From positions 1 to 48,513 of the forward strand of contig CAXNIK010000001.1 of the NCBI GenBank assembly GCA_964202115.1: a stretch of 48,513 nt of DNA, given 5' to 3'. The position numbers and the translations under genes were made by a program. A model generated the notes under the pieces. That model was not told the origin of the DNA, did no database searches, and was given only the letters and a program-made list of their open reading frames with translations. Each line of letters starts with the position of its first letter. Positions within the stretch are counted from its first letter, which is position 1. The stretch is from Burkholderiales bacterium. Its GTDB lineage: Bacteria; Pseudomonadota; Gammaproteobacteria; Burkholderiales; SG8-39. Positions 3,166 through 42,230 of the stretch are shown one piece after another.

Positions 3166-4167
3166 CTATTCGAGTTTGAGGCCGATGGCTTTGACGACGC
3201 GCTCATTGGAGGCGAGATCGGAGCGGATTAGTTTGTCGAAATCCTCGGGCGAAGTGACGAAGGGCTCGGTGCCTATCTTGAGGAAGCGCTCCCTGGTCTC
3301 CGCGCTGTTGAGCACCTTGGCGGTGGCGTCGTACAGGATGCGCACGACCTCACGCGGGGTCTTGGCCGGGGCAAGAAAGCCCAGCCAGCTCCCGTAGGCC
3401 GAGTTGGCCATGCCGGCCTCCTCGATGGAAGGCACGTTTGGCAGGAGGGTGGTGCGCCGCGACGACATCGCCAGCGGAGTGAGCCTGCCGCCCTGGATGC
3501 CTGGCATGGCGGCGACCAGCGAGGTATAGGTAAAGTCCACGCGGCCCGCCATCACTTCGTTCAGAGCGTCGGTGGTGGTCTTGAAAGGCACGTGCAGCGC
3601 CTCGAAGCCGCCGGCGATGCGGACTTTCTCCGACGAGATATGGGTGGAAGTGCCGGTGCCAGCCGAAGCGAAAGTCAAGGCGCCGGGCTTGGCCTTGGCG
3701 GCGGCCACCAGTTCCGCCACGGAAAGAATGTTCTTGGAGCGCGCGATCACCAGCACCAGCGGATTCTCAGCCAGCGTAGTGATGCCGGCGAAATCATTCG
3801 CGGGATGAAAGGGCACATTCTTGGTGACCAGTGACACGGTGGTATGCGAGGAAGGCACCGCAACGAGCGTCAACCCGTCGGGCGGTGAGATTGCGACTGC
3901 CTGCGTGCCGACAACGCCGCCTGCACCCAGCCGGTTCTCAACGACCACCGGCTGCTTCAACTCCTTGCCGATGGGCTCGTTGATAAGTCGCACGATCACG
4001 TCCAGCCCCGTACCCGGCCCATAAGGCACGATGACTCGAACGGGACGCGAGGGAAAGCTCTGGGCTAAAACGTTGTTTGCGAAAAGCGCCGCAGTGGTAC
4101 CGAACAGCGCGCCGACGAGCGTGATGGCCGTAGCGCGACGCATCACCGTCCTTTTTGCTTGCTGCAT
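3166..4167 (-). CDS. Bug/TctC-family periplasmic solute-binding protein
   Basis: Track ORF of 333 aa. Signal peptide, then SFPSRPVRVIVPYGPGTGLD, PPDGLTL, VPFKTTTDA. AAGGAG lies upstream of the ATG at 4167. It starts 45 nt after the upstream gene and is probably co-transcribed. Confidence 0.88.
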   Translation of the reverse strand: MQQAKRTVMRRATAITLVGALFGTTAALFANNVLAQSFPSRPVRVIVPYGPGTGLDVIVRLINEPIGKELKQPVVVENRLGAGGVVGTQAVAISPPDGLTLVAVPSSHTTVSLVTKNVPFHPANDFAGITTLAENPLVLVIARSKNILSVAELVAAAKAKPGALTFASAGTGTSTHISSEKVRIAGGFEALHVPFKTTTDALNEVMAGRVDFTYTSLVAAMPGIQGGRLTPLAMSSRRTTLLPNVPSIEEAGMANSAYGSWLGFLAPAKTPREVVRILYDATAKVLNSAETRERFLKIGTEPFVTSPEDFDKLIRSDLASNERVVKAIGLKLE

Positions 4168-4211: not shown

Positions 4212-5912
4212 TCAGATGTCAATCTTCTTGGTGGTCGGAAACCCGAGATGGCCGTTGTGCGCGAATACATAGCCATTGGTGCGCAGCGGATCGCCCGATA
4301 TGGCGATCATGTACTGGTCTGGCGACCAGACCAGCGGCACTTTGCGATTCGGGTCATCGGACTCCGCAAAAAAAGCAGGTATCCGTCCCGCCTTCGCTTC
4401 CTCGGTGAGGCTCCACACCGGCCGGCCGTTCCAGTCGCGCAGCTGGCGCTCGAACTCCCATGCCGGAATGCGCGCGTGGTCAAACACGTACTGCCGGATA
4501 TCGTCCTTGGACCAGCCTGCCTGGGCGATCGTTTCAGCGAGGATGGGCGTGAGCATGATGAGCGGCCGCAGCGTTCCATATCCCCGTCCATGCGAGAAAC
4601 ATATCTGCCAGGAAATGTGGCGGAACATGGCATCGGACAGATAGTCGCAGAGCTGCTCGGGCGTATGCCCGGAGAGTGAAGCGATAAGGTCGCCGCCGGT
4701 ATAGCGCGCCACGGTCACCGTGCTGTCGTCGCGCGAAAAACCGGCCTCCATGGCGATGGACTTCCATCCCAGCTTCTCCAGCGCCTCCTCGTTCTCCGGC
4801 ACCACCACCCGCCAGGTATTGCCGTAGGTGCCCTTGTCGGTGCGATGCGGCAGGAACCCCGCCACATTGCGCAGGAACAGGCGCCAAAAGCGGCCCACGG
4901 AGGTGTTCGGCTGAAAACCGTCGCGCATCACCCCCTGGGTGTAATTGAAGCCGAAACGCTTGATGACCGGCCCGTTGAGGATGATGAGCGTTTCAGCGCC
5001 GGGGGTGTTGCCACTATGTTCCACGCCATAGCGCTTGTCGATCATGGCCTCGGCCAGCGCCAGCAGGATGGGCATGTATTCGGGACGGCAACCCGCCATC
5101 ACGCCGTTGACGGCCACGCTCCACACGGTGGCGGTGCGCCGGTCGGGCAACATCACGCCCATCACCTCGTCCGGCCGACGCCGGGTGTGGCTGAGGAACT
5201 CTTCGACGCGCGCCCTGGTTGGCGGAACGACGGGCAGTCCGTCGCCCCATTCATTCTTGATGAATTCCTCGTTGATCTCAAAGAAGCCGCCACGCGCAAC
5301 TATGTCGCGCGGACCAGGCTCCTCGTCCACCTCAACGCTGCTGGTGGCCTCGGTCAGGTTGGCGATGACGCAGTCAAGCGTGACGTTCATGACGTTGTTG
5401 TATATCTCCTCCGGGCTCTGAACCCCGGTGTGCCCGGGCACGTGCGCAAGCGGCATGTCCGGATAACCCAAGCCGACAGTGGTGGCTTTTGCCTGGCCCA
5501 TGAAGCCCGTGCACACCAGGGCGGCGGTGGGTATTCCGGCTTCTTCCGCTTTCTCGTTCGCCCGCAGCACGGCGGGCGTACAGCTCCCTCAAGCAGCCAT
5601 GCCGGTGATGGCGGCGGTCACTCCATACTCGCGTAAAGTTTCGGGCAGTTTTTCGACAACCTCATGCTCGGTCGGGCTGTGGATGTTGCCAATATCCTTC
5701 CAACTCACGAACTTGACGTTCTTGAAGCGCTTCTGGATGCCTTCCCGCAGCGCCTCGAACAACTGGTCGCCACGAAAGCCGTAGGTCCACATCTCGGCAA
5801 TGACGGCATTGTCCAGTGTCGCCAGCCGCTTGGCCAGTGGTTTGCGCCGGCCCTTGCGTTCGGCACGCGGCCAGTACGCTTCGTAGTAACCGTCGTTTTC
5901 CGCTTGCGCCAT
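4212..5912 (-). CDS. Candidate selenoprotein: UGSC-motif redox domain fused to an uncharacterised GDGLPxVPPT/AGCRPEY domain. It is 566 aa if UGA 5589-5591 is decoded as Sec108.
   Basis: Track ORFs 5589..6125 (real start ATG 5912, AGGAG 5 nt upstream) and 4212..5570 are in the same frame. They are separated only by TGA plus 6 sense codons: ...VTAAITGMAA-TGA-GSCTPAVLRANEK.... The downstream ORF has no ATG start. A SECIS-like hairpin follows the UGA. Confidence 0.6.
5559..5578 (-). promoter_or_regulatory. SECIS-like stem-loop 10 nt downstream of the in-frame UGA
   Basis: mRNA sense: UGA GGGAGCUGUA CGCCCGC-CGUGCU-GCGGGCG AAC. This is a perfect 7-bp GC-rich stem with a 6-nt loop containing GU. 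It can extend by U-A, G-C and U-G pairs across an A.A mismatch. Confidence 0.5.
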
Positions 5913-5923
5913 GTTTGCTCCTG

Positions 5924-6043: not shown

Positions 6044-6302
6044 GGCACTCATGGATAAGCGCAAGCAGCATGGCCTGGTGTGCAAGCGTGCACGCAAGTG
6101 GAAGGCAACGTCCAACTCCAGGCATCGATTACCCGTCGCCCTCAATCTGCTGGATTGACATCATGAGTGCGAGTGCGCAAACTTGACCTTGAGCTGACAG
6201 GAACAGGCTTGGGTCAACAGTTGCGAGTTTCCCGGGTTCCGATGGAGGCCTTCTTCTCTCCCGCCGACTTAAATTTCAACTTTCTTGGAGGAACGACACA
6301 TC

Positions 6303-7439
6303 ATGTCGAAGGCTGGGTTCAAGATTTTCGACGCCGACGCCCACGTAAGCGAGCCACCCGAAATCATCGAGAAGTACATCGACTCCGCGTACAAGGAAAA
6401 ACTCCTGAAGTGGAAGATTCCCGGGATTGCGACTTACCGGCCCAACCATATCGGGTTTACCCGTGTCCTCGGCACTTCGCCAAGCGCCGAGCATTCCAAG
6501 CCCGTGGCACGCCAGAACGTCTCGCCGCGTCACCGCCAGGCTCCGATGCCGAATACGAATACCGATCCGGAAGAGCGCATTGTCGACATGAACCAGGAGG
6601 GCATCGACGGTGGCCTGATTCTGCCAACGGGCGTGGGCTCCTTCTGTTCCGTGGATGACCTCGGTCTCGAGATGGCCGTGATCAAGGCCTATCACCGTTT
6701 CATGAGCGATTTCTGCAGGAACTATCCCGGCAGGCTGTATGCAGTCGCCGTGGTGTCCGCGCGCAATATCGACGAATCAATCGCGGAATTGAAGCGCGTG
6801 GCAAAGGAGCCCTGGCCTGCTGCAATATTTCCCTCGTTGCCGCCGCGCATGCCGCTGGATGACCCGGCGCTGGATCCCCTATGGGCAGCGGCGAATGACC
6901 TGGACATGACCATCGCCCTGCACACCTTTACGGTGATTCCGCCCTACGCTCCTGGTGCCCTGGACGGTTCCTATTTCGACAACTACTGGCTGGCGCGCGC
7001 GGCGGCCCATCCCTGGTGCGGCATGCGCAACATGGCGGCGCTGCTGGGCAGCGGCGTGCTGGATCGCCACAAAAAGCTCAACATCTCCCTGCTGGAGGCA
7101 GGCCAGGGCTGGCTGCCCTACTGGGTCAAGCGCCTGGACGAGCAGGCGGCCTACAGCCCTTCATCACTGCCGGCCGGCATTCGCACGGTCAAGGAATACA
7201 TCGACGCAGGCCGCTATTTCCAGTCCATCGAAATGCACGAAGGCGAATCGATGACCAAGTACGTCATTGACGAAATCGGCGAGGATACGCTCATGTTCTC
7301 AAGCGACTATCCGCACGGCGAGACCTGGTTCCCGGACACCGTTGACACCTTCCTCGGCTGGAAGAGCATTACCGAGAAGGTGAAGCGCAAGGTCTTCTGG
7401 GACAACGCCAAGCGTTGCTACCCGAGGATTGCAGGTTGA
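6303..7439 (+). CDS. Amidohydrolase-2 (ACMSD-like) family metal-dependent hydrolase/decarboxylase
   Basis: Track ORF 6285..7439. I prefer the ATG at 6303 (MSKAGFKIFDADAHVSEPPE), with GGAGG at 6287-6291. The FDADAHV N-terminal motif and the C-terminal SDYPHGE are typical of PF04909-type amidohydrolases. Confidence 0.8.
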   Translation: MSKAGFKIFDADAHVSEPPEIIEKYIDSAYKEKLLKWKIPGIATYRPNHIGFTRVLGTSPSAEHSKPVARQNVSPRHRQAPMPNTNTDPEERIVDMNQEGIDGGLILPTGVGSFCSVDDLGLEMAVIKAYHRFMSDFCRNYPGRLYAVAVVSARNIDESIAELKRVAKEPWPAAIFPSLPPRMPLDDPALDPLWAAANDLDMTIALHTFTVIPPYAPGALDGSYFDNYWLARAAAHPWCGMRNMAALLGSGVLDRHKKLNISLLEAGQGWLPYWVKRLDEQAAYSPSSLPAGIRTVKEYIDAGRYFQSIEMHEGESMTKYVIDEIGEDTLMFSSDYPHGETWFPDTVDTFLGWKSITEKVKRKVFWDNAKRCYPRIAG

Positions 7440-11147: not shown

Positions 11148-12125
11148 CTAATCGATTCTGATATTCCCCGCCTTGACCACCGCCGCCCAGCGCACCGTCT
11201 CCGCCTGTATGTTCTTCGCGAATTCCTCGGGCGTGCTCGCGACGATCTCCAGTCCCTGCTTGCCCAGGGTGGAACTGCCCTCGGCGGAGGTCAGATACTT
11301 CACCGTCTCCGCATTCATGCGCGCGATGATGGCGCGCGGTGTCTTCGCCGGCGCGAGGATGCCGGTGCCCGACTGCACCTGGAACTCGGCTATGCCCGCC
11401 TCCCCAGCCGTGGGCACATCCGGCAGAGCTGCCACCCGCTTGGGCGCGCTCACCGCCAGCATCCTCAGCTTGCCCGCCTTGACGAAGGCAATGGTGGTCG
11501 GCACGCCTATGGTCATGAGGTCCACGCGTCCTGCCACCACGTCGGTGAGGGCCGGGCCGGCACCCTTGAAGGGCACATGCTGCATCTGCGTCTTTGTGAT
11601 CATGGCCAGCAGTTCCGCTGCCAGGTGATTGATGCTGCCATTGCCCGAGGAGGCAAAGGTGAGCTTGCCCGGGTTGGCACGCAGGTGGGCGATCAGGTCC
11701 TTCACCGACGCTGCCGGCACACCCGGATGAACCACGATGGCATTGGGATTCATGGCGATGGACACAATGGGCGCCAGGTCGCGCTGCGGATCGAAGCTCA
11801 TGCTGTAGAGCGCCGGGTTGATGGTGAGCTGGCTGCTGGTTGCAAAGAGCAGCGTGTAGCCGTCGGGCGCGGCGCGTACCACCTCGTAGGCGCCGATGTT
11901 GCCGTTGGCCCCGGGCCGGTTATCGATGATCACCTGCTGGCCGAACACCTGCGACAGATGGGCCACGATGGGCCGCGCGATGTTGTCATTGCCGCCGCCG
12001 GCCGCGTAGCCATTGATCATGCGCACGGGTTTGGCGGGCCAGGTCTGGGCGGCGGCGGACTGGGACAGTGTCGCGGCCAAAGTGGCCAGGCCCAGCAAGG
12101 CCAGCGTCGGGATTCTTTTCATCAT
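11148..12125 (-). CDS. Bug/TctC-family periplasmic solute-binding protein
   Basis: Track ORF of 325 aa. MMKRIPTLALLGLATLAATLSQSAAAQTWPAKPVRMI, PDGYTLL, VPFKGAGPA. A strong AAGGAGGA RBS precedes it. Confidence 0.9.
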   Translation of the reverse strand: MMKRIPTLALLGLATLAATLSQSAAAQTWPAKPVRMINGYAAGGGNDNIARPIVAHLSQVFGQQVIIDNRPGANGNIGAYEVVRAAPDGYTLLFATSSQLTINPALYSMSFDPQRDLAPIVSIAMNPNAIVVHPGVPAASVKDLIAHLRANPGKLTFASSGNGSINHLAAELLAMITKTQMQHVPFKGAGPALTDVVAGRVDLMTIGVPTTIAFVKAGKLRMLAVSAPKRVAALPDVPTAGEAGIAEFQVQSGTGILAPAKTPRAIIARMNAETVKYLTSAEGSSTLGKQGLEIVASTPEEFAKNIQAETVRWAAVVKAGNIRID

Positions 12126-12242
12126 TCCTCCTTGTTCAAATCGGGTGCCGGCATTGGCCGGACTTTATTATCAATTATGTATTCTGCTCATTTATGCTGT
12201 TACATCATTGAACAGAATGTAATCAAGCCTATACTGGCAATC

Positions 12243-12332
12243 AGCCCCCTCGCTGGCAGGCCGGCATTCCAGTCAAAGTACCGAGCCGGCTGAAGGAAGA
12301 AATTTGCAGAAAGGCCCGCCGGATAGCACCCC
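12243..12332 (-). repeat. Copy E of the repeated element: well-conserved left arm, diverged core
   Basis: Sense: GGGGTGCTATCCGGCGGGCCTTTCTGCAAAT (12302-12332) matches the left arm of copy C almost exactly. The following ~55 nt (CAGCCGGCT..TTTGACTGG..GCCGGCCTGCCAGCG) align only loosely to the core. Confidence 0.55.
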
Positions 12333-26125: not shown

Positions 26126-26821
26126 CTAGTTGAACTCGGCGATGAGGTCGGTGACCGTGCGCGTGGGATTCAGGAACAGGCAACCGGAGCGATGCGCGGT
26201 CCTGCCATCGGGCAGGGTGATGCTGGTGGAGTAGCGCACCTCCAGGTCGACGGTGATGGACTCGCGGCCCTCGCGCTTGACGCGGCAGCCCTTCAGTACC
26301 GTCCCAGGCTCCAGGGTGATGTCCGAGTGATACAGCAGAAAGCCTATGCCGCGGTTGCTGATGTCAATGATGCGGCCGTCAAAGGAGGCCACGCCGCTGG
26401 CATCGGCCAGGCACTCGAACGTGATGGGGTTGGTCAACGACAGGCGTGGCTCCGCGCGCCGGTGATCCTGGCTGACGATGACCGCCGGAAAATCCAGATT
26501 GATGATGGCCTGCTCGCCCAGCATGGCTGCGCGCGGCTCCGCGGCGGCGAATTCGATGTGCCAGCCGCCTGATTCGGAGACGAAGCTGGCACGGGGGCGG
26601 GCCAGCAGGGCGGCATTGGCCTGCTCGTTGGCCGAAGGAGCGAGTCCTATGCGGCGATTGGGCAGATCGACGGAGACCAGTCTCGATGCGAACATCAGCC
26701 CGTCCTTGCCGACGATGGACCTGACGGAGTGTTTGGTCCGGTGCAGCGACATCAGCACGCGCGCGATGTCCTCCGAGCGACGGGAAATAAGGCCACCTGC
26801 GGGTATGGAATCGGTGCTCAT
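26126..26821 (-). CDS. PilZ-domain c-di-GMP-binding protein, YcgR-like (flagellar brake type)
   Basis: Track ORF 26126..26929. The likely start is ATG 26821 (MSTDSIPAGG). The RRAEPR ... DISNRGIGF pair matches the RxxxR / DxSxxG PilZ motifs, preceded by a YcgR-like N-terminal domain. Confidence 0.7.
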   Translation of the reverse strand: MSTDSIPAGGLISRRSEDIARVLMSLHRTKHSVRSIVGKDGLMFASRLVSVDLPNRRIGLAPSANEQANAALLARPRASFVSESGGWHIEFAAAEPRAAMLGEQAIINLDFPAVIVSQDHRRAEPRLSLTNPITFECLADASGVASFDGRIIDISNRGIGFLLYHSDITLEPGTVLKGCRVKREGRESITVDLEVRYSTSITLPDGRTAHRSGCLFLNPTRTVTDLIAEFN

Positions 26822-26961
26822 GTGTTGTGTGCGGTACAGTGAAGTGAAAGGGATTAATTCGAGGTGTTGCCATAACCTTATCGATTTTTCCTGGTGTGAC
26901 AATAGGGGGAATCTGTACAACCGCGGCAAAATGCCAACTATTACCGACTGTGGGTGCAGGC

Positions 26962-37634: not shown

Positions 37635-37878
37635 ACCGAGAAAGCGCCCGCTACTCCCACTCGATTATTAACGGCATATGTAAGCCGTTGTCGCATTTAG
37701 AAGTTCGTTCTGCGAGTAGCATTTTTACCGTCAGATTTACCGTCAATCTCATCTGATCCCCGAAAAAAGCGCTTTGATCGCTGCGCCGCTTGGAATTCTC
37801 AATATGTGGTGGATCTGCTCAACTTGCAGCGTAACATGCACCTTCGCGGCACAAGCATTTCCACTTTGCGAGGAGGCA

Positions 37879-38853
37879 ATGATGAGAAATCCGTTCTTTG
37901 CAGTTGCTCTGGCCACGACCTTGGCCCTGGCCTCGAGCCTGGCGGTCGCACAAAACTATCCGACCCGGACAGTGACCATCGTCGTGCCGTTTGCCGCGGG
38001 GGCATCCAGCGACATCGAGACGCGCATCTATGCGCAAAAGCTCACCGAATCCCTGGGTCAGACCTTCGTCGCCGATTTCAAGCCCGGCGCCGGCGGCACA
38101 CTGGGCACGGCCTATGTTGCCAAGTCCGCGCCGGACGGCTACACCCTCATGGCCATGAGCGGCGGCTTCAACTCCGCGGCCTCGCTGTATGCCAACCTGC
38201 CCTATGACGCGCAAAAGGACTTCACGCCCATTTCGCTCATGAGCCTGCGCTCCACCGCCATCCTGGTCCATCCGGCGACGCCATACCGGAACGTCCAGGA
38301 ATACGTCGCCTATGCCAAGGCCAATCCAGGCAAGATCAATGTCTCCACCGCCGGCGCGGGTGGTTCACCGCACCTGAATGCCGCCTGGTTTCACGGTCTG
38401 ACCGGCACCGAGGTCACCTTCGTGCACTACAAGGGCACCGCGACTGCGTCCATCGACCTGGTGGCCGGCCGGGTCGATGTGTTCTTCGGCACCCTGCTGA
38501 GCGCCCTGCCCAATCTGAAGTCGGGCAAGGTCAGGGCGATTGCCATAGCCAACGCCCAGCGCAGCCCCCTGATGCCCGATCTGACCACGGCGCAGGAGCA
38601 GGGTGTGCCCGGCTTCGACTACTCCAGCATCTTCGGCATCATCGGCCCGGCGCGCCTGCCGCCACCGGTGTTGAACAGGCTCGCCGGCGAGTTGGCGAAG
38701 ATCGCCAGGATGCCCGACGTCATCAAGAGGATAGAAGCCGACGGTGGCGTAACGGTGGGTAATACCCCGGAGCAGTTCCGCAACCTGATCGCCACGGAAA
38801 TCGTGCGCTATCGCAAGATCATCCAGGACAACAAGGTCAAGCTGGAGGAGTAG
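37879..38853 (+). CDS. Bug/TctC-family periplasmic solute-binding protein
   Basis: Track ORF 37774..38853. I prefer the ATG at 37879 (MMRNPFFAVALATTLALASSLAVAQNYPTRTVTIVVPFAAGASSD), after GAGGAGGC. Confidence 0.9.
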   Translation: MMRNPFFAVALATTLALASSLAVAQNYPTRTVTIVVPFAAGASSDIETRIYAQKLTESLGQTFVADFKPGAGGTLGTAYVAKSAPDGYTLMAMSGGFNSAASLYANLPYDAQKDFTPISLMSLRSTAILVHPATPYRNVQEYVAYAKANPGKINVSTAGAGGSPHLNAAWFHGLTGTEVTFVHYKGTATASIDLVAGRVDVFFGTLLSALPNLKSGKVRAIAIANAQRSPLMPDLTTAQEQGVPGFDYSSIFGIIGPARLPPPVLNRLAGELAKIARMPDVIKRIEADGGVTVGNTPEQFRNLIATEIVRYRKIIQDNKVKLEE

Positions 38854-38865
38854 CGGTCAGCGCGA

Positions 38866-39897
38866 TCAGCTCGCGTTGACCGTCACGGCCTTGCTCACCG
38901 CCCTCGATCCGCCCCAGGTCGGTATGTAAGCGGCTTTCACGCCATGCCCTCCGGCGACGACGATGAGGATGTCCGAGGCTTCCTTGGCAATGCGCACCGG
39001 CGCGTCGGGGTCCAGGCCCGCGGTTTTGCGATGCGCAACCACACGCTCCCGCACCGCATTTGAGAGTCTCTCCAGCGGCAGCCCCGCGTCCTTGAACAGG
39101 GCGGCCTGCACGTCCTCGCGCGACATGCCTTCCTGGTGAAAATGCTGCGCCTGTTCCGGCGGCATGATGACCAGCGGCTGACCGCTGCCCATCATACCCA
39201 TGTTGCCCACGCTGCCCGCGTACACCATGGAGCTGGCGAAGGTGCGTATCAGGTCGGAGGGCTTGCTGCTCACCGAGTCCACGACCTCGATGATGCCGGC
39301 GGCACCGGCCACGGTCACGGCACTCTGGTCCCTGGTGAAACCGCGTGTGGCGTGCAGCGGCAGCCAGGGGCTGGCCTCCTCATTCTCGGCCAGGCAGAAG
39401 GTGTACTTGCCCGGATGACCCAGCGTGGCCATGTCCATCTCGCCGGGCTTGGCCCCGCCGATGTTGCGCAGGATGAGGCTGATGGCCCTGCCTATGGTGG
39501 CATTGGCGCGGTTGCCGGGGCCCAGTGCATTGCCCGCGGCGTTCATGCCGATCTTTGCGACGACCGGTCCGTTGACGATGGTGATGGGCGCCGCTGACCC
39601 CGTGGTGGTCTGTATGCCCAGCAGGTTGTATTCGTTCTCGGCCATGGCCAGCAGCGCCGCGGCGATCACGCCCAGGTACTCAGGCCGGCAGCCCGCCATC
39701 ACGGCGTTTTCGGCGATGCCGCGCCAGGTGGCCTCGCCGAATGCGGGGGCGAGCGTGACCACGACTTCATCTGCGTCCACGTCGTTGCGTTTCAGCATGG
39801 CCTCGACGCGTTCGCGTGTGGGTGGCACCAGCGGCAGCCCGTCGCCCCGATCGGACAGCGCTTCCTGCTCGGCTTCCCATTGGTCGTGTGTGCTCAT
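38866..39897 (-). CDS. Uncharacterised protein, a stand-alone paralogue of the C-terminal domain of the candidate selenoprotein
   Basis: Track ORF 38866..39936. The likely start is ATG 39897 (MSTHDQWEAEQEAL). It shares GDGLPLVPPTRERVE, ENAVMAGCRPEYL, ITIVNGPV and AENEEA blocks with residues ~220-400 of the 4212..5912 product. Confidence 0.75.
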   Translation of the reverse strand: MSTHDQWEAEQEALSDRGDGLPLVPPTRERVEAMLKRNDVDADEVVVTLAPAFGEATWRGIAENAVMAGCRPEYLGVIAAALLAMAENEYNLLGIQTTTGSAAPITIVNGPVVAKIGMNAAGNALGPGNRANATIGRAISLILRNIGGAKPGEMDMATLGHPGKYTFCLAENEEASPWLPLHATRGFTRDQSAVTVAGAAGIIEVVDSVSSKPSDLIRTFASSMVYAGSVGNMGMMGSGQPLVIMPPEQAQHFHQEGMSREDVQAALFKDAGLPLERLSNAVRERVVAHRKTAGLDPDAPVRIAKEASDILIVVAGGHGVKAAYIPTWGGSRAVSKAVTVNAS

Positions 39898-40124
39898 GGC
39901 TTCCCGGTGTCGTGATGTTGAGGTGTCGCTCCCCATTCATCACAAATGGTGATGGGGGGATCAGTACATCCTATTTTACGGCCACAGGCTTTCCTTATAA
40001 GCTGGCAGTGCTTGCAAGTCCGGGTCTGCCCCGCCCGCCCGGACTGAAGAAATAACAACGCCAAGCGAAAGCGCGAGGCAATGCCGCACGCGCTTCTCCC
40101 CATGGCGAAGAACCGGAACTGCCC

Positions 40125-42230
40125 ATGAGCTTCGACCTGCTGTTCAACGCCCGGGGAATCGCCATCATCGGCGCCTCGGACAATCCCTCGCGCTCGGGCA
40201 GCCAGCCCATCGCGGCGCTGAAAAGCGGCGGCTACAAGGGCGGCATCTACCCGGTCAATCCGCGCTACCAGGAGATCGGCGGCTACAAGTGTTATGCCTC
40301 ACCCGCAGACATCAGGGAGCCGGTGGACATCGCGGTGATCGCCCTGCCGGCGGCCGGAGCGGTGGACATGGTCAAGACCTGCGGCGAGCTGGGCATCGGC
40401 TATGGTGTGGTGCTGGGTGGGGGCTTTCGCGAAGTCGGCCCGGAAGGCCTGGCGCTGCAGAACCAGCTTGTGGCCAACGCACGGGCGCATGGCATGCGCC
40501 TCATCGGACCCAATTGCAACGGCATCGCCAATATCCACTCGCGCATGTATGCCTGCTTCGGCAGCATGTCGCGGCCGCCGCGGCTGAAGGCCGGGCCGGT
40601 GTCCATGGTGATGCAAAGCGGGGGCTTCGGCTATGGCATGGCGCTGGCCTGCCGCAACGAGAACATCGGCTTTCGCATGCTTATCGCCAGCGGCAATGAG
40701 GCCGATCTCACCGCGCCCGAACTGATCGACGCGCTGGTCGATGATCCGCAGACCGAGATCATCCTCGCCTATCTGGAAGGCGTGATGGACGGGCGCGCGC
40801 TGCTGGCCGCCGGTGATCGCGCTCTGTCCGCGGGCAAGCCGCTGCTGGTGTGGAAGGCGGGCAAGGGCCGCCAGGGACTGCGCGCCGCGGCCACGCACAC
40901 CGCCAACATGACCGGCAGCTACGACGTGTGGAGGGCGGCCTTCCGCCAGCACGGCATCATCGATCTCACCGAGATGGAACAGATCACCGACACCATTCAG
41001 GCTTTTGCTGCGAAGCGCTTGCCGCGCGGCCGCAACATCGCCGTGCTTACGCCTTCCGGCGGTTCGGCGGTGGTGGTGTCGGACGCCGCCGACCAGTTCG
41101 GGCTGACACTCCTCGCGCCCGGCGAGCAGACCGCTGCCGGCCTGCGCCAGGCGCTGCCCCATGCGCATACGCATGCCAATCCCATCGATATCGGTGCGGG
41201 CGGGATCAGCCCGGCGAACCGCGCCAATGTGGCCAGGGCGCTGGATGTGCTCCTGGCTGATCCGGACATCCACCAGGTGTTTCTCATGACGCCGACCTCG
41301 GTGGGCGATCGCGCCATCACCGGGGCGCAGATCATGGCCGAGGCAAGTAAGCGCACCGACAAGCCCTTGCTGGTGTTCTCAACGCTTCTGCGCGACATCA
41401 TCGCCGAGACGCTGGACGCCTTTGCCGCGGCCAACATACCGGTGCTGCGCTCGCCGGTGCGGGTGGCGCGTGCCGGTGGCATGCTCGCCGACTATGCCGA
41501 GGCGCGCAGCGCCCTGGCGAGCAGGCTTGCGCGGGGCGGTGAAGCAGCCTCTGCCAAAGGCATGGCCATCGCCGGCAGCGGAACCCTGGACGAGGCTCGC
41601 AGCAAGGCAGTGCTGGCGGCCGCGGGCCTGCGTGTGACCCGCGATGTGGTGCTGGCAGCCGATGGCAGCGCGGCGATCCCCGAGTTCGACTATCCGGTCG
41701 CAGTCAAGGTGCTGTCCCCGGACATCGCGCACAAGACCGATGTGGGCGGCGTGATGCTCAATGTCGCCGATGCGGCGGCGTTGAAGGCGGCCACGCAGAC
41801 AGTCATTGCCAATGCGCGCCGCGCGAAAGCCGATGCGCGCATCGAAGGCGTGCTGGTGTCGGAGATGATCACCGATGCCGTGGAAGTCATCGTCGGTGTC
41901 ATCAACGATGAGGTATTCGGCCCGGTGTTGATGCTGGGCATGGGCGGCGTGCTGGCCGAGGCGATGCGCGATGTCACTTACCGAGTTGCGCCCGTGGAAC
42001 TTGAAGAGGCGCAGCAGATGCTAGGCGAGTTGCGCGCGGCCAGCGTGTTCAGCGGCCTGCGCGGACGCCCGCCCTGCGATACCGCCGCCCTGGCGCAGGC
42101 GCTGGTGGCCGTGTCGCGCCTCGCCTGGGAGCAGCGCGAGCGCATCGCCGGGCTGGACATCAATCCACTCATGGTTCGTCCCGCCGGCCACGGCGTCGTT
42201 GCCGCGGACGCCCTGATCGTGCTGCGCTGA
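40125..42230 (+). CDS. ADP-forming acetate/acyl-CoA ligase family protein (CoA-binding + ligase-CoA + ATP-grasp)
   Basis: Track ORF of 701 aa. ARGIAIIGASDNPSRSG, PVNPRYQEIGGYKCY, LIGPNCNGI and the C-terminal ATP-grasp region (YPVAVKVLSPDIAHKTDVGGV). Confidence 0.88.
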   Translation: MSFDLLFNARGIAIIGASDNPSRSGSQPIAALKSGGYKGGIYPVNPRYQEIGGYKCYASPADIREPVDIAVIALPAAGAVDMVKTCGELGIGYGVVLGGGFREVGPEGLALQNQLVANARAHGMRLIGPNCNGIANIHSRMYACFGSMSRPPRLKAGPVSMVMQSGGFGYGMALACRNENIGFRMLIASGNEADLTAPELIDALVDDPQTEIILAYLEGVMDGRALLAAGDRALSAGKPLLVWKAGKGRQGLRAAATHTANMTGSYDVWRAAFRQHGIIDLTEMEQITDTIQAFAAKRLPRGRNIAVLTPSGGSAVVVSDAADQFGLTLLAPGEQTAAGLRQALPHAHTHANPIDIGAGGISPANRANVARALDVLLADPDIHQVFLMTPTSVGDRAITGAQIMAEASKRTDKPLLVFSTLLRDIIAETLDAFAAANIPVLRSPVRVARAGGMLADYAEARSALASRLARGGEAASAKGMAIAGSGTLDEARSKAVLAAAGLRVTRDVVLAADGSAAIPEFDYPVAVKVLSPDIAHKTDVGGVMLNVADAAALKAATQTVIANARRAKADARIEGVLVSEMITDAVEVIVGVINDEVFGPVLMLGMGGVLAEAMRDVTYRVAPVELEEAQQMLGELRAASVFSGLRGRPPCDTAALAQALVAVSRLAWEQRERIAGLDINPLMVRPAGHGVVAADALIVLR

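Follow-up and report, generated by a model that had tools for sequence, protein, structure and literature searches.

Here we describe a gene on a 48,513-nt contig of a Burkholderiales bacterium (GenBank assembly GCA_964202115.1, contig CAXNIK010000001.1, positions 1 to 48,513; hereafter 'the window', which is all the DNA analysed from the source organism). With a probability of about 0.88, as judged from sequence comparison, positions 4212-5912 on the minus strand constitute a single gene for a 566-residue selenoprotein of the UGSC family, in which an in-frame UGA codon (5589-5591) is predicted to be read as selenocysteine (Sec) with the help of a SECIS element (selenocysteine insertion sequence). 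The core of this reading is strongly supported by the correspondence of Cys and UGA among homologues, conservation of the TGA, synonymous constraint specific to the SECIS, continuity of a protein domain across the UGA and linkage of orthologues to the Sec machinery; that Sec is actually inserted in the source organism is something we infer.

The coding sequence begins at an ATG (5910-5912) with the Shine-Dalgarno motif AGGAG (5918-5922, read from the sequence) 5 nt upstream, and its first 107 codons run to the TGA at 5589-5591, which is codon 108 and the U of U-G-S-C. In the same frame, six sense codons (GGG AGC TGT ACG CCC GCC) lead from this TGA to a GTG (5568-5570), taken by an open reading frame (ORF) finder as the start of a second ORF of 452 codons that stops at TGA 4212-4214. 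Translation through the UGA gives the peptide ...VTAAITGMAA-U-GSCTPAVLRA..., in which Cys111 (TGT, 5580-5582), invariant across Sec and Cys forms, is the partner Cys of a U-x-x-C redox motif. An earlier sequence-only reading of the window had named all these elements of the layout and proposed a candidate selenoprotein with the motif straddling the UGA; each element proved to be correctly placed, and the proposal itself is borne out by the comparisons below. Gene callers and the public records instead give two unnamed ORFs of 107 and 452 amino acids, as would be expected of a pair of genes, the first ended by the UGA as a genuine stop and the second, the 452-residue ORF, re-initiated at GTG 5570 from a GGGAG that the window does carry 13 nt upstream of it. 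We consider this two-gene arrangement very unlikely, for reasons that recur in several of the lines of evidence that follow.

Homology extends across the UGA without a break. When Cys was put in place of the UGA residue, the Pfam UGSC profile (PF24696) aligned straight across it over residues 13-178 (5379-5876, minus strand) at 82.2 bits, against a gathering threshold of 25 (E = 6.5e-23), and each half of the closest relative separately matches the same model; a search of NCBIfam with either half alone gave no match. Among 5.8 billion proteins searched, more than 5,000 relatives were found, mostly of approximately 450-470 residues, covering 80% of the query and starting with (M/V)LRAS just past the UGA position. 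A minority are full-length (578-592 residues, 99% coverage) and collinear with the read-through protein. Ten such full-length homologues have Cys exactly in the UGA column (GA-C-GSCTPAV, compared with AA-UGA-GSCTPAV in the window), and for five of them the codon was checked in the DNA, obtained by exact-protein look-ups and not by DNA scans, and found to be TGT or TGC. The Cys forms are single polypeptides, which argues against two genes. A conserved redox motif in which Cys and UGA correspond in this way is classically taken as the mark of a selenoprotein.

The same continuity is seen in structure, which was modelled with AlphaFold 2 (AF2) on a full-length Cys-form homologue 54% identical to the window protein (predicted local distance difference test (pLDDT) 87, predicted template-modelling score (pTM) 0.89). 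Residues 1-190 of this model form one compact beta-alpha-beta domain, with the C/U-G-S-C motif placed between a strand (101-107) and the N-terminus of a helix (112-125). Since the motif lies inside a single domain of the model, a true stop at this position would cut that domain in two, severing it between a strand and the next helix, which is again difficult to reconcile with two separate genes.

We then asked how constant the codon is. A genome scan with one genome per species gave 80 loci with 84 gene copies, spanning Burkholderiales, other Betaproteobacteria, Alpha- and Gammaproteobacteria and Dehalococcoidia, with Variovorax sp. WDL1, Steroidobacter flavus and Novosphingobium sp. MW5 among the isolates represented; a further 80 loci came from metagenomes, which were scanned with Cys forms as seeds. 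TGA occupies the codon in 84/84 genome copies and, despite the Cys-form seeds, in all 80 metagenome loci, and no Cys form was found among the 160 loci from DNA scans. A lone in-frame stop looks like a sequencing or assembly error, or like a recent nonsense mutation in a pseudogene, but independent assemblies of the window sequence (L081 and L082) carry the TGA too, as do the two closest relatives (77% and 71% identity), at the identical codon 108, and 166/166 TGA-form copies recovered from genomes and metagenomes together; this explanation is thereby effectively refuted. Compared with the two closest relatives, the proportions of nonsynonymous and synonymous differences (pN/pS) are 0.27/0.75 upstream of the UGA and 0.15/0.63 downstream; pN falls well short of pS on either side of the UGA, which indicates purifying selection on both halves in this frame. 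Identical copies of the gene also recur in several samples. The residue directly before Sec is Cys in 76/84 genome copies (C-U-G-S-C) and Ala in the window and a minority of others (A-U-G-S-C); the extra Cys may be relevant to the redox chemistry.

Immediately 3' of the UGA lies a hairpin, CGCCCGC/CGUGCU/GCGGGCG (5559-5578), which starts 10 nt after the codon and forms the upper stem and loop of a predicted bacterial SECIS (5555-5582, minus strand) with a short lower stem across an A.A mismatch. Folded by itself it reaches -13.6 kcal/mol, and the two or three additional pairs beyond the mismatch bring this to -16.1 kcal/mol. The consensus for bacterial SECIS elements (bSECIS; PMC13188914, Fig. 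2A) has a loop of 3-9 nt (6 nt here, CGUGCU), an upper stem of 4-16 bp (7 bp here) and a minimum free energy of -7.5 kcal/mol or lower (-13.6 kcal/mol here). One of its first two loop positions is a G, with G or U as the usual next base, and 16-37 nt separate UGA and loop (PMC13188914); the window hairpin has G at loop position 2, U at position 3 and a spacing of 17 nt, and so falls within the consensus on every count.

Because the peptide GSCTPAVLRAS is conserved, the informative sites in this region are the synonymous ones, and these were compared between 144 unique TGA forms and five independent Cys forms by Fisher test. Three codons are nearly or wholly frozen in the TGA forms and free in the Cys forms: Pro is CCC in 141/144 TGA forms but in only one of five Cys forms, which use CCT, CCG, CCA and CCC (p = 8.7e-6); Ala is GCC in 144/144 but in one of five, which use GCG, GCA and GCC (p = 2.5e-7); and Arg is CGG in 144/144 but in one of five, which use CGT, CGC and CGG (p = 2.5e-7). 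The Thr codon differs less (ACG in 136/144 TGA forms; ACG in three and ACT in two Cys forms; p = 0.037), and Val is GTG in 144/144 and 5/5 (p = 1). The upper stem is wholly paired (6/6) in 141/144 TGA forms and in none of the five Cys forms, which keep 3-4 of the six pairs. Consensus folding of an 84-sequence alignment leaves 91.5% of cells paired, compared with at most 64% for slid registers. At one stem pair (columns 15-32), G-C in 139 sequences is replaced by A-U in four, and U at column 32 always occurs with A at column 15 (4/4; p = 8e-7, uncorrected for phylogeny); the switch is found in two codon contexts, in one of which Thr ACA is combined with Val GTG and in the other Ala GCA with Val GTT. 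The SECIS-like hairpin that the sequence-only reading had pointed out is thus both present and conserved, with one compensatory pair.

The flanking Gly, Ser and Ala codons of the TGA forms, by comparison, use all their synonyms. The putative Shine-Dalgarno of a re-initiating second gene is accordingly unconserved, with Gly as GGC, GGG, GGT or GGA and Ser as AGC, AGT or TCN. An RNA constraint that is present with UGA and vanishes when the codon is TGY is expected of a SECIS and not of a re-initiation signal. Overall, these comparisons support selection on RNA structure beyond coding constraint, and only where the codon is UGA.

Related loci also tie the gene to Sec decoding. In the 80 genome loci 11 tRNA genes were detected, and four of these are tRNA-Sec, all on the minus strand and 0.2-2.6 kb from the fusion gene (as we call it for its two domains): approximately 200-230 nt upstream of it in Variovorax sp. 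WDL1 (L046, 8029-8123) and in L008 (2361-2455), and nearby in L004 (7274-7370) and L076 (14280-14372). In the two loci tested for it, Variovorax sp. WDL1 and L004, SelA adjoins tRNA-Sec (586 and 579 bits, cutoff 268); L004 also has SelB (358 bits), and in 12 loci SelB is encoded no more than 4 kb from the gene. In the genomes in which tRNA-Sec, selA and selB are linked to it, the fusion gene appears to belong to an island of Sec machinery, and this linkage is a further point against two genes. It also bears on which residue is inserted. Read-through as such does not identify the residue, and near-cognate decoding or a changed genetic code could in principle place Trp, Cys or Gly at the UGA. 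A code change is contradicted by the gene's own terminator, which is also TGA (4212-4214), and by the ORFs across the window, which end normally; the conserved SECIS-type hairpin tied to the UGA, and tRNA-Sec, selA and selB linked to the gene elsewhere, point to Sec specifically. We therefore regard insertion of a standard residue as highly improbable.

One related locus shows the selenoprotein domain on its own. Directly 3' of the fusion gene in L019 is a small stand-alone UGSC gene (11687-12330, plus strand) that contains an in-frame TGA of its own (...LTASGD-U-GSCSSWSV...), and selB comes next; an N-terminal ORF similar to the small UGSC gene recurs in six loci.

Several observations weigh against the selenoprotein reading, or against its completeness in the source organism. 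The genes selA, selB and selD are absent among the approximately 45 annotated ORFs of the window, and a tRNA search of its 48.5 kb gave no tRNA genes and hence no tRNA-Sec; nor was the thioredoxin-reductase-like partner gene that accompanies the fusion in related loci (see below) found there. The window hairpin is unexceptional for GC-rich DNA when compared with shuffled sequence (z = -1.67), and with the single-sequence fold being unremarkable the case for a SECIS rests on the comparative evidence. Covariation is thin in an element that is near-invariant, with one double-change pair and an indecisive shuffle control, and the lower stem of the window is in another register than the family consensus. 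Rfam returned no SECIS or other relevant family, either for the whole window at gathering thresholds or for 5450-5650 at E <= 10. Finally, the whole read-through protein scores 40.2 bits against the NCBIfam model NF041046, below the curated cutoff of 125.

The lack of Sec machinery in the window is also what favours a gene that is a selenoprotein by descent but dead in the source organism after loss of Sec decoding, which would leave only a truncated 107-residue product. Once a genome can no longer decode Sec, its selenoprotein genes usually degenerate or exchange Sec for Cys. In the window gene both halves are under purifying selection, the upper stem of the SECIS keeps every conserved nucleotide, the start codon and Shine-Dalgarno are intact, and identical copies recur across samples. 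Loss of decoding is thus an unlikely explanation, and a functional Sec-containing protein remains the reading we prefer.

The protein belongs to a family with a long record. This family, the 'UGSC-containing protein', is established among the predicted selenoproteins; it was reported in 2005-2008 (PMC2398784, Zhang & Gladyshev), was described earlier as 'a selenoprotein of unknown function' (PMC1976440) and, according to a 2026 review that cites NF041046 (PMC13188914), is still functionally uncharacterised. In Global Ocean Sampling (GOS) data it was among the most abundant selenoprotein families, with 255 Sec and 21 Cys forms, and enriched in non-marine samples (PMC2398784). The family name 'UGSC family (seleno)protein', which the sequence-only reading had named, does exist, as NCBIfam NF041046 and Pfam PF24696, and NCBI already applies it to several close homologues. 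The window protein shares with the family the U-G-S-C motif, the replacement of Sec by Cys in a minority of members, the SECIS directly 3' of the UGA and the large excess of Sec over Cys forms, seen both in the GOS data and here. Membership, which had been left to profile searches, holds at the level of the Pfam domain but not of the NCBIfam equivalog. NF041046 models a stand-alone protein of approximately 150-200 residues, of which the L019 gene is an example, whereas the window protein has an extra C-terminal domain of 370 residues. By these profile comparisons, it is a divergent fused branch of the UGSC family and not an NF041046 equivalog.

The C-terminal domain (approximately residues 200-566; 4215-5315, minus strand) comprises about 370 residues, and its motif GVMAGCRPEY holds a Cys that is invariant (Cys275, codon 5088-5090). 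It has no Pfam or NCBIfam match, and sequence-profile searches of the PDB with the fusion and with the stand-alone domain gave no meaningful match. By fold, too, it has no convincing relative: the best Foldseek matches, to class I fumarate hydratases, are weak (probability 0.54, template-modelling (TM) score 0.24, root-mean-square deviation about 18 Å) and, particularly with only one conserved Cys, do not count as evidence of homology. The invariant Cys275 is common to a stand-alone C-domain family of more than 7,700 'hypothetical proteins'. One member, of 356 amino acids, is encoded in the window itself (38866-39936, minus strand) and aligns with residues 215-493 of the selenoprotein at 33% identity (E = 3e-38); it lacks a UGSC domain, a Pfam family and a convincing PDB neighbour (AF2 pLDDT 90.7) and is flanked by a TctC gene (37774-38853, plus strand) and an ADP-forming acyl-coenzyme A (acyl-CoA) synthetase gene (40125-42230, plus strand). 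Another stand-alone paralogue, of approximately 387 amino acids, occurs near the fusion gene in 28 loci, usually directly 3' and on the same strand (for example, L094 2057-3220, plus strand), with the motifs WTDGLPIVPPT and HGVMAGCRPEY; this arrangement suggests a possible hetero-oligomer of the fusion protein and its downstream paralogue. Together with the stand-alone UGSC genes, these stand-alone proteins mean that both domains occur fused and separate. A comparable protein has been described before: the 2008 GOS study reported a fusion, 'UGSC/Unknown_1', with an added domain that carries a conserved Cys and is found as a stand-alone protein too (PMC2398784, Fig. S1A). Its description fits the window protein, with the Cys (Cys275 here) and the stand-alone family, which makes it a possible match. 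Both the family and a fusion of UGSC to an unknown domain are therefore already in the literature (PMC2398784), and it is in the records that the window gene is mis-annotated.

The UGSC domain has been given a 'likely Trx-like fold' in the literature. In a Foldseek search with the AF2 model of the Cys-form homologue, the N-terminal domain had partial matches to flavodoxin-like folds and there was no thioredoxin in the top 50, at low TM-scores and with a two-domain query. The U/CxxC pair at a helix N-terminus and the frequent proximity of the gene to a CxxC flavoprotein recall the relays of thioredoxin with low-molecular-mass thioredoxin reductase and of AhpF with AhpC. The UGSC fusion differs from these relays in that its carrier domain does not look thioredoxin-like in the model, the candidate reductase falls under the thioredoxin reductase equivalog cutoff, the acceptor domain is unnamed and the window has no partner gene.

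The selenoproteins GrdB (glycine/sarcosine/betaine reductase) and PrdB (D-proline reductase) have a UxxC-type Sec motif and are substrate-specific reductases fed electrons by a thioredoxin system. A resemblance to them had been suggested from the sequence context, and it is not supported: there was no GRDB match at E <= 0.1, no grdA, grdC, grdD, grdE or prdA gene in the window and no GrdB or PrdB among the fold-search matches, which were flavodoxin-like. Their hosts are amino-acid-fermenting anaerobes, in contrast to the aerobic-type Proteobacteria in which the UGSC fusion is found.

The gene neighbourhood offers a different set of clues. Within 4 kb of the gene in 162 loci, the commonest neighbours are TctC/Bug receptors (67/162), followed by the stand-alone C-domain paralogue (28/162), a thioredoxin-reductase-like flavoprotein of approximately 305 residues (25/162), short-chain dehydrogenases/reductases (20/162), family III CoA-transferases (18/162), acyl-CoA dehydrogenases (17/162), MmgE/PrpD (11/162) and Amidohydro_2 (9/162, the window included). 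When searched for by tblastn, the flavoprotein was found in approximately 35 Sec-form loci (for example, L036 11763-12689, and L046 3890-4825 on the minus strand), and its gene abuts the fusion gene on 6/6 Cys-form contigs (L163-L168). It has a Pyr_redox_2 domain with the CxxC motif CAWC where thioredoxin reductase has CATC, and scores 230 bits against TIGR01292, below the equivalog cutoff of 343. From its position and sequence, it is a candidate for the dedicated reductase of the U/CxxC pair.

In the window, a TctC/Bug periplasmic receptor gene (3166-4167, minus strand; Pfam PF03401, 220 bits) lies 44 nt downstream of the selenoprotein gene and is probably co-transcribed with it, and a divergent Amidohydro_2 gene (6285-7439, plus strand; Pfam PF04909) has a counterpart on one Cys-form contig. 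The window holds 13 TctC/Bug genes in all, starting at 733, 1961, 3166, 7734, 11148, 12386, 23932, 24950, 27576, 35672, 37774, 43098 and 45236, and no matching TctA/TctB membrane genes were present among the window ORFs scanned. Between the TctC genes are catabolic genes for two amidases, hydantoinase A/B, biotin carboxylase and carboxyltransferase, and CoA-transferases; others encode three proteins of the phosphoenolpyruvate-mutase/isocitrate-lyase family, TauD and a luciferase-like monooxygenase. The sequence-only reading had thought a selenoprotein unusual in such a Bug/amidohydrolase setting of a betaproteobacterium. With most of the family in Burkholderiales and other Betaproteobacteria and TctC as its most frequent flanking gene, the setting turns out to be typical. 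A PilZN (YcgR-type) ORF (26126-26929, minus strand) lies amid the catabolic genes and is unrelated to its neighbours.

From these elements a working mechanism can be sketched. Translation would start at ATG 5910-5912, and SelB with Sec-tRNA(Sec), recruited by the hairpin at 5555-5582, would meet the ribosome at UGA 5589-5591, so that Sec would be inserted and translation would continue to the stop at 4212. The UGSC domain, flavodoxin-like alpha/beta in the model, would hold the redox pair U108-G-S-C111 at a helix N-terminus, and this selenol/thiol pair may cycle between reduced and selenenylsulfide states. Electrons from NAD(P)H would pass through the low-molecular-mass thioredoxin-reductase-like flavoprotein to re-reduce the U-x-x-C pair, and the C-terminal domain would bind the substrate that then receives the reducing equivalents; this substrate would probably be an organic acid, or a derivative of one, imported by the neighbouring TctC/Bug systems. 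On the basis of the domain fusion and the gene neighbourhood, a dithiol/selenol relay within organic-acid catabolism would be the most economical reading. More tentatively, and with clearly less than even confidence, we suggest that the fusion could form the centre of a reductase system that depends on selenium, has not been described before and is widespread among aerobic Burkholderiales and other Proteobacteria. In it, a dedicated thioredoxin-reductase-like flavoprotein would reduce the UGSC carrier, flavodoxin-like and not thioredoxin-like in this reading, and reductive chemistry would take place at the invariant Cys of the C-terminal domain, whose very large family (more than 7,700 stand-alone members) is unnamed and without a convincing structural neighbour, with an organic acid imported by TctC/Bug as substrate.

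Like almost all of its several thousand public relatives, the gene is annotated as two unnamed ORFs of 107 and approximately 452 amino acids, and this split makes the selenoprotein invisible to users of the annotation. The finding leaves the understanding of selenoprotein synthesis unchanged. It bears instead on a family that is among the most abundant predicted selenoproteins in aquatic metagenomes and has been without an assigned function for approximately 20 years. Handles on that function come from the fusion to a large, uncharacterised Cys-containing domain, from the thioredoxin-reductase-like gene that recurs beside it and from its setting among genes of organic-acid catabolism; cultured hosts exist in Variovorax sp. 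WDL1, Steroidobacter flavus and Novosphingobium sp. MW5. If the reductase-system reading is true, the fusion would serve as a 'Rosetta stone' that pairs stand-alone UGSC selenoproteins functionally with stand-alone C-domain proteins.

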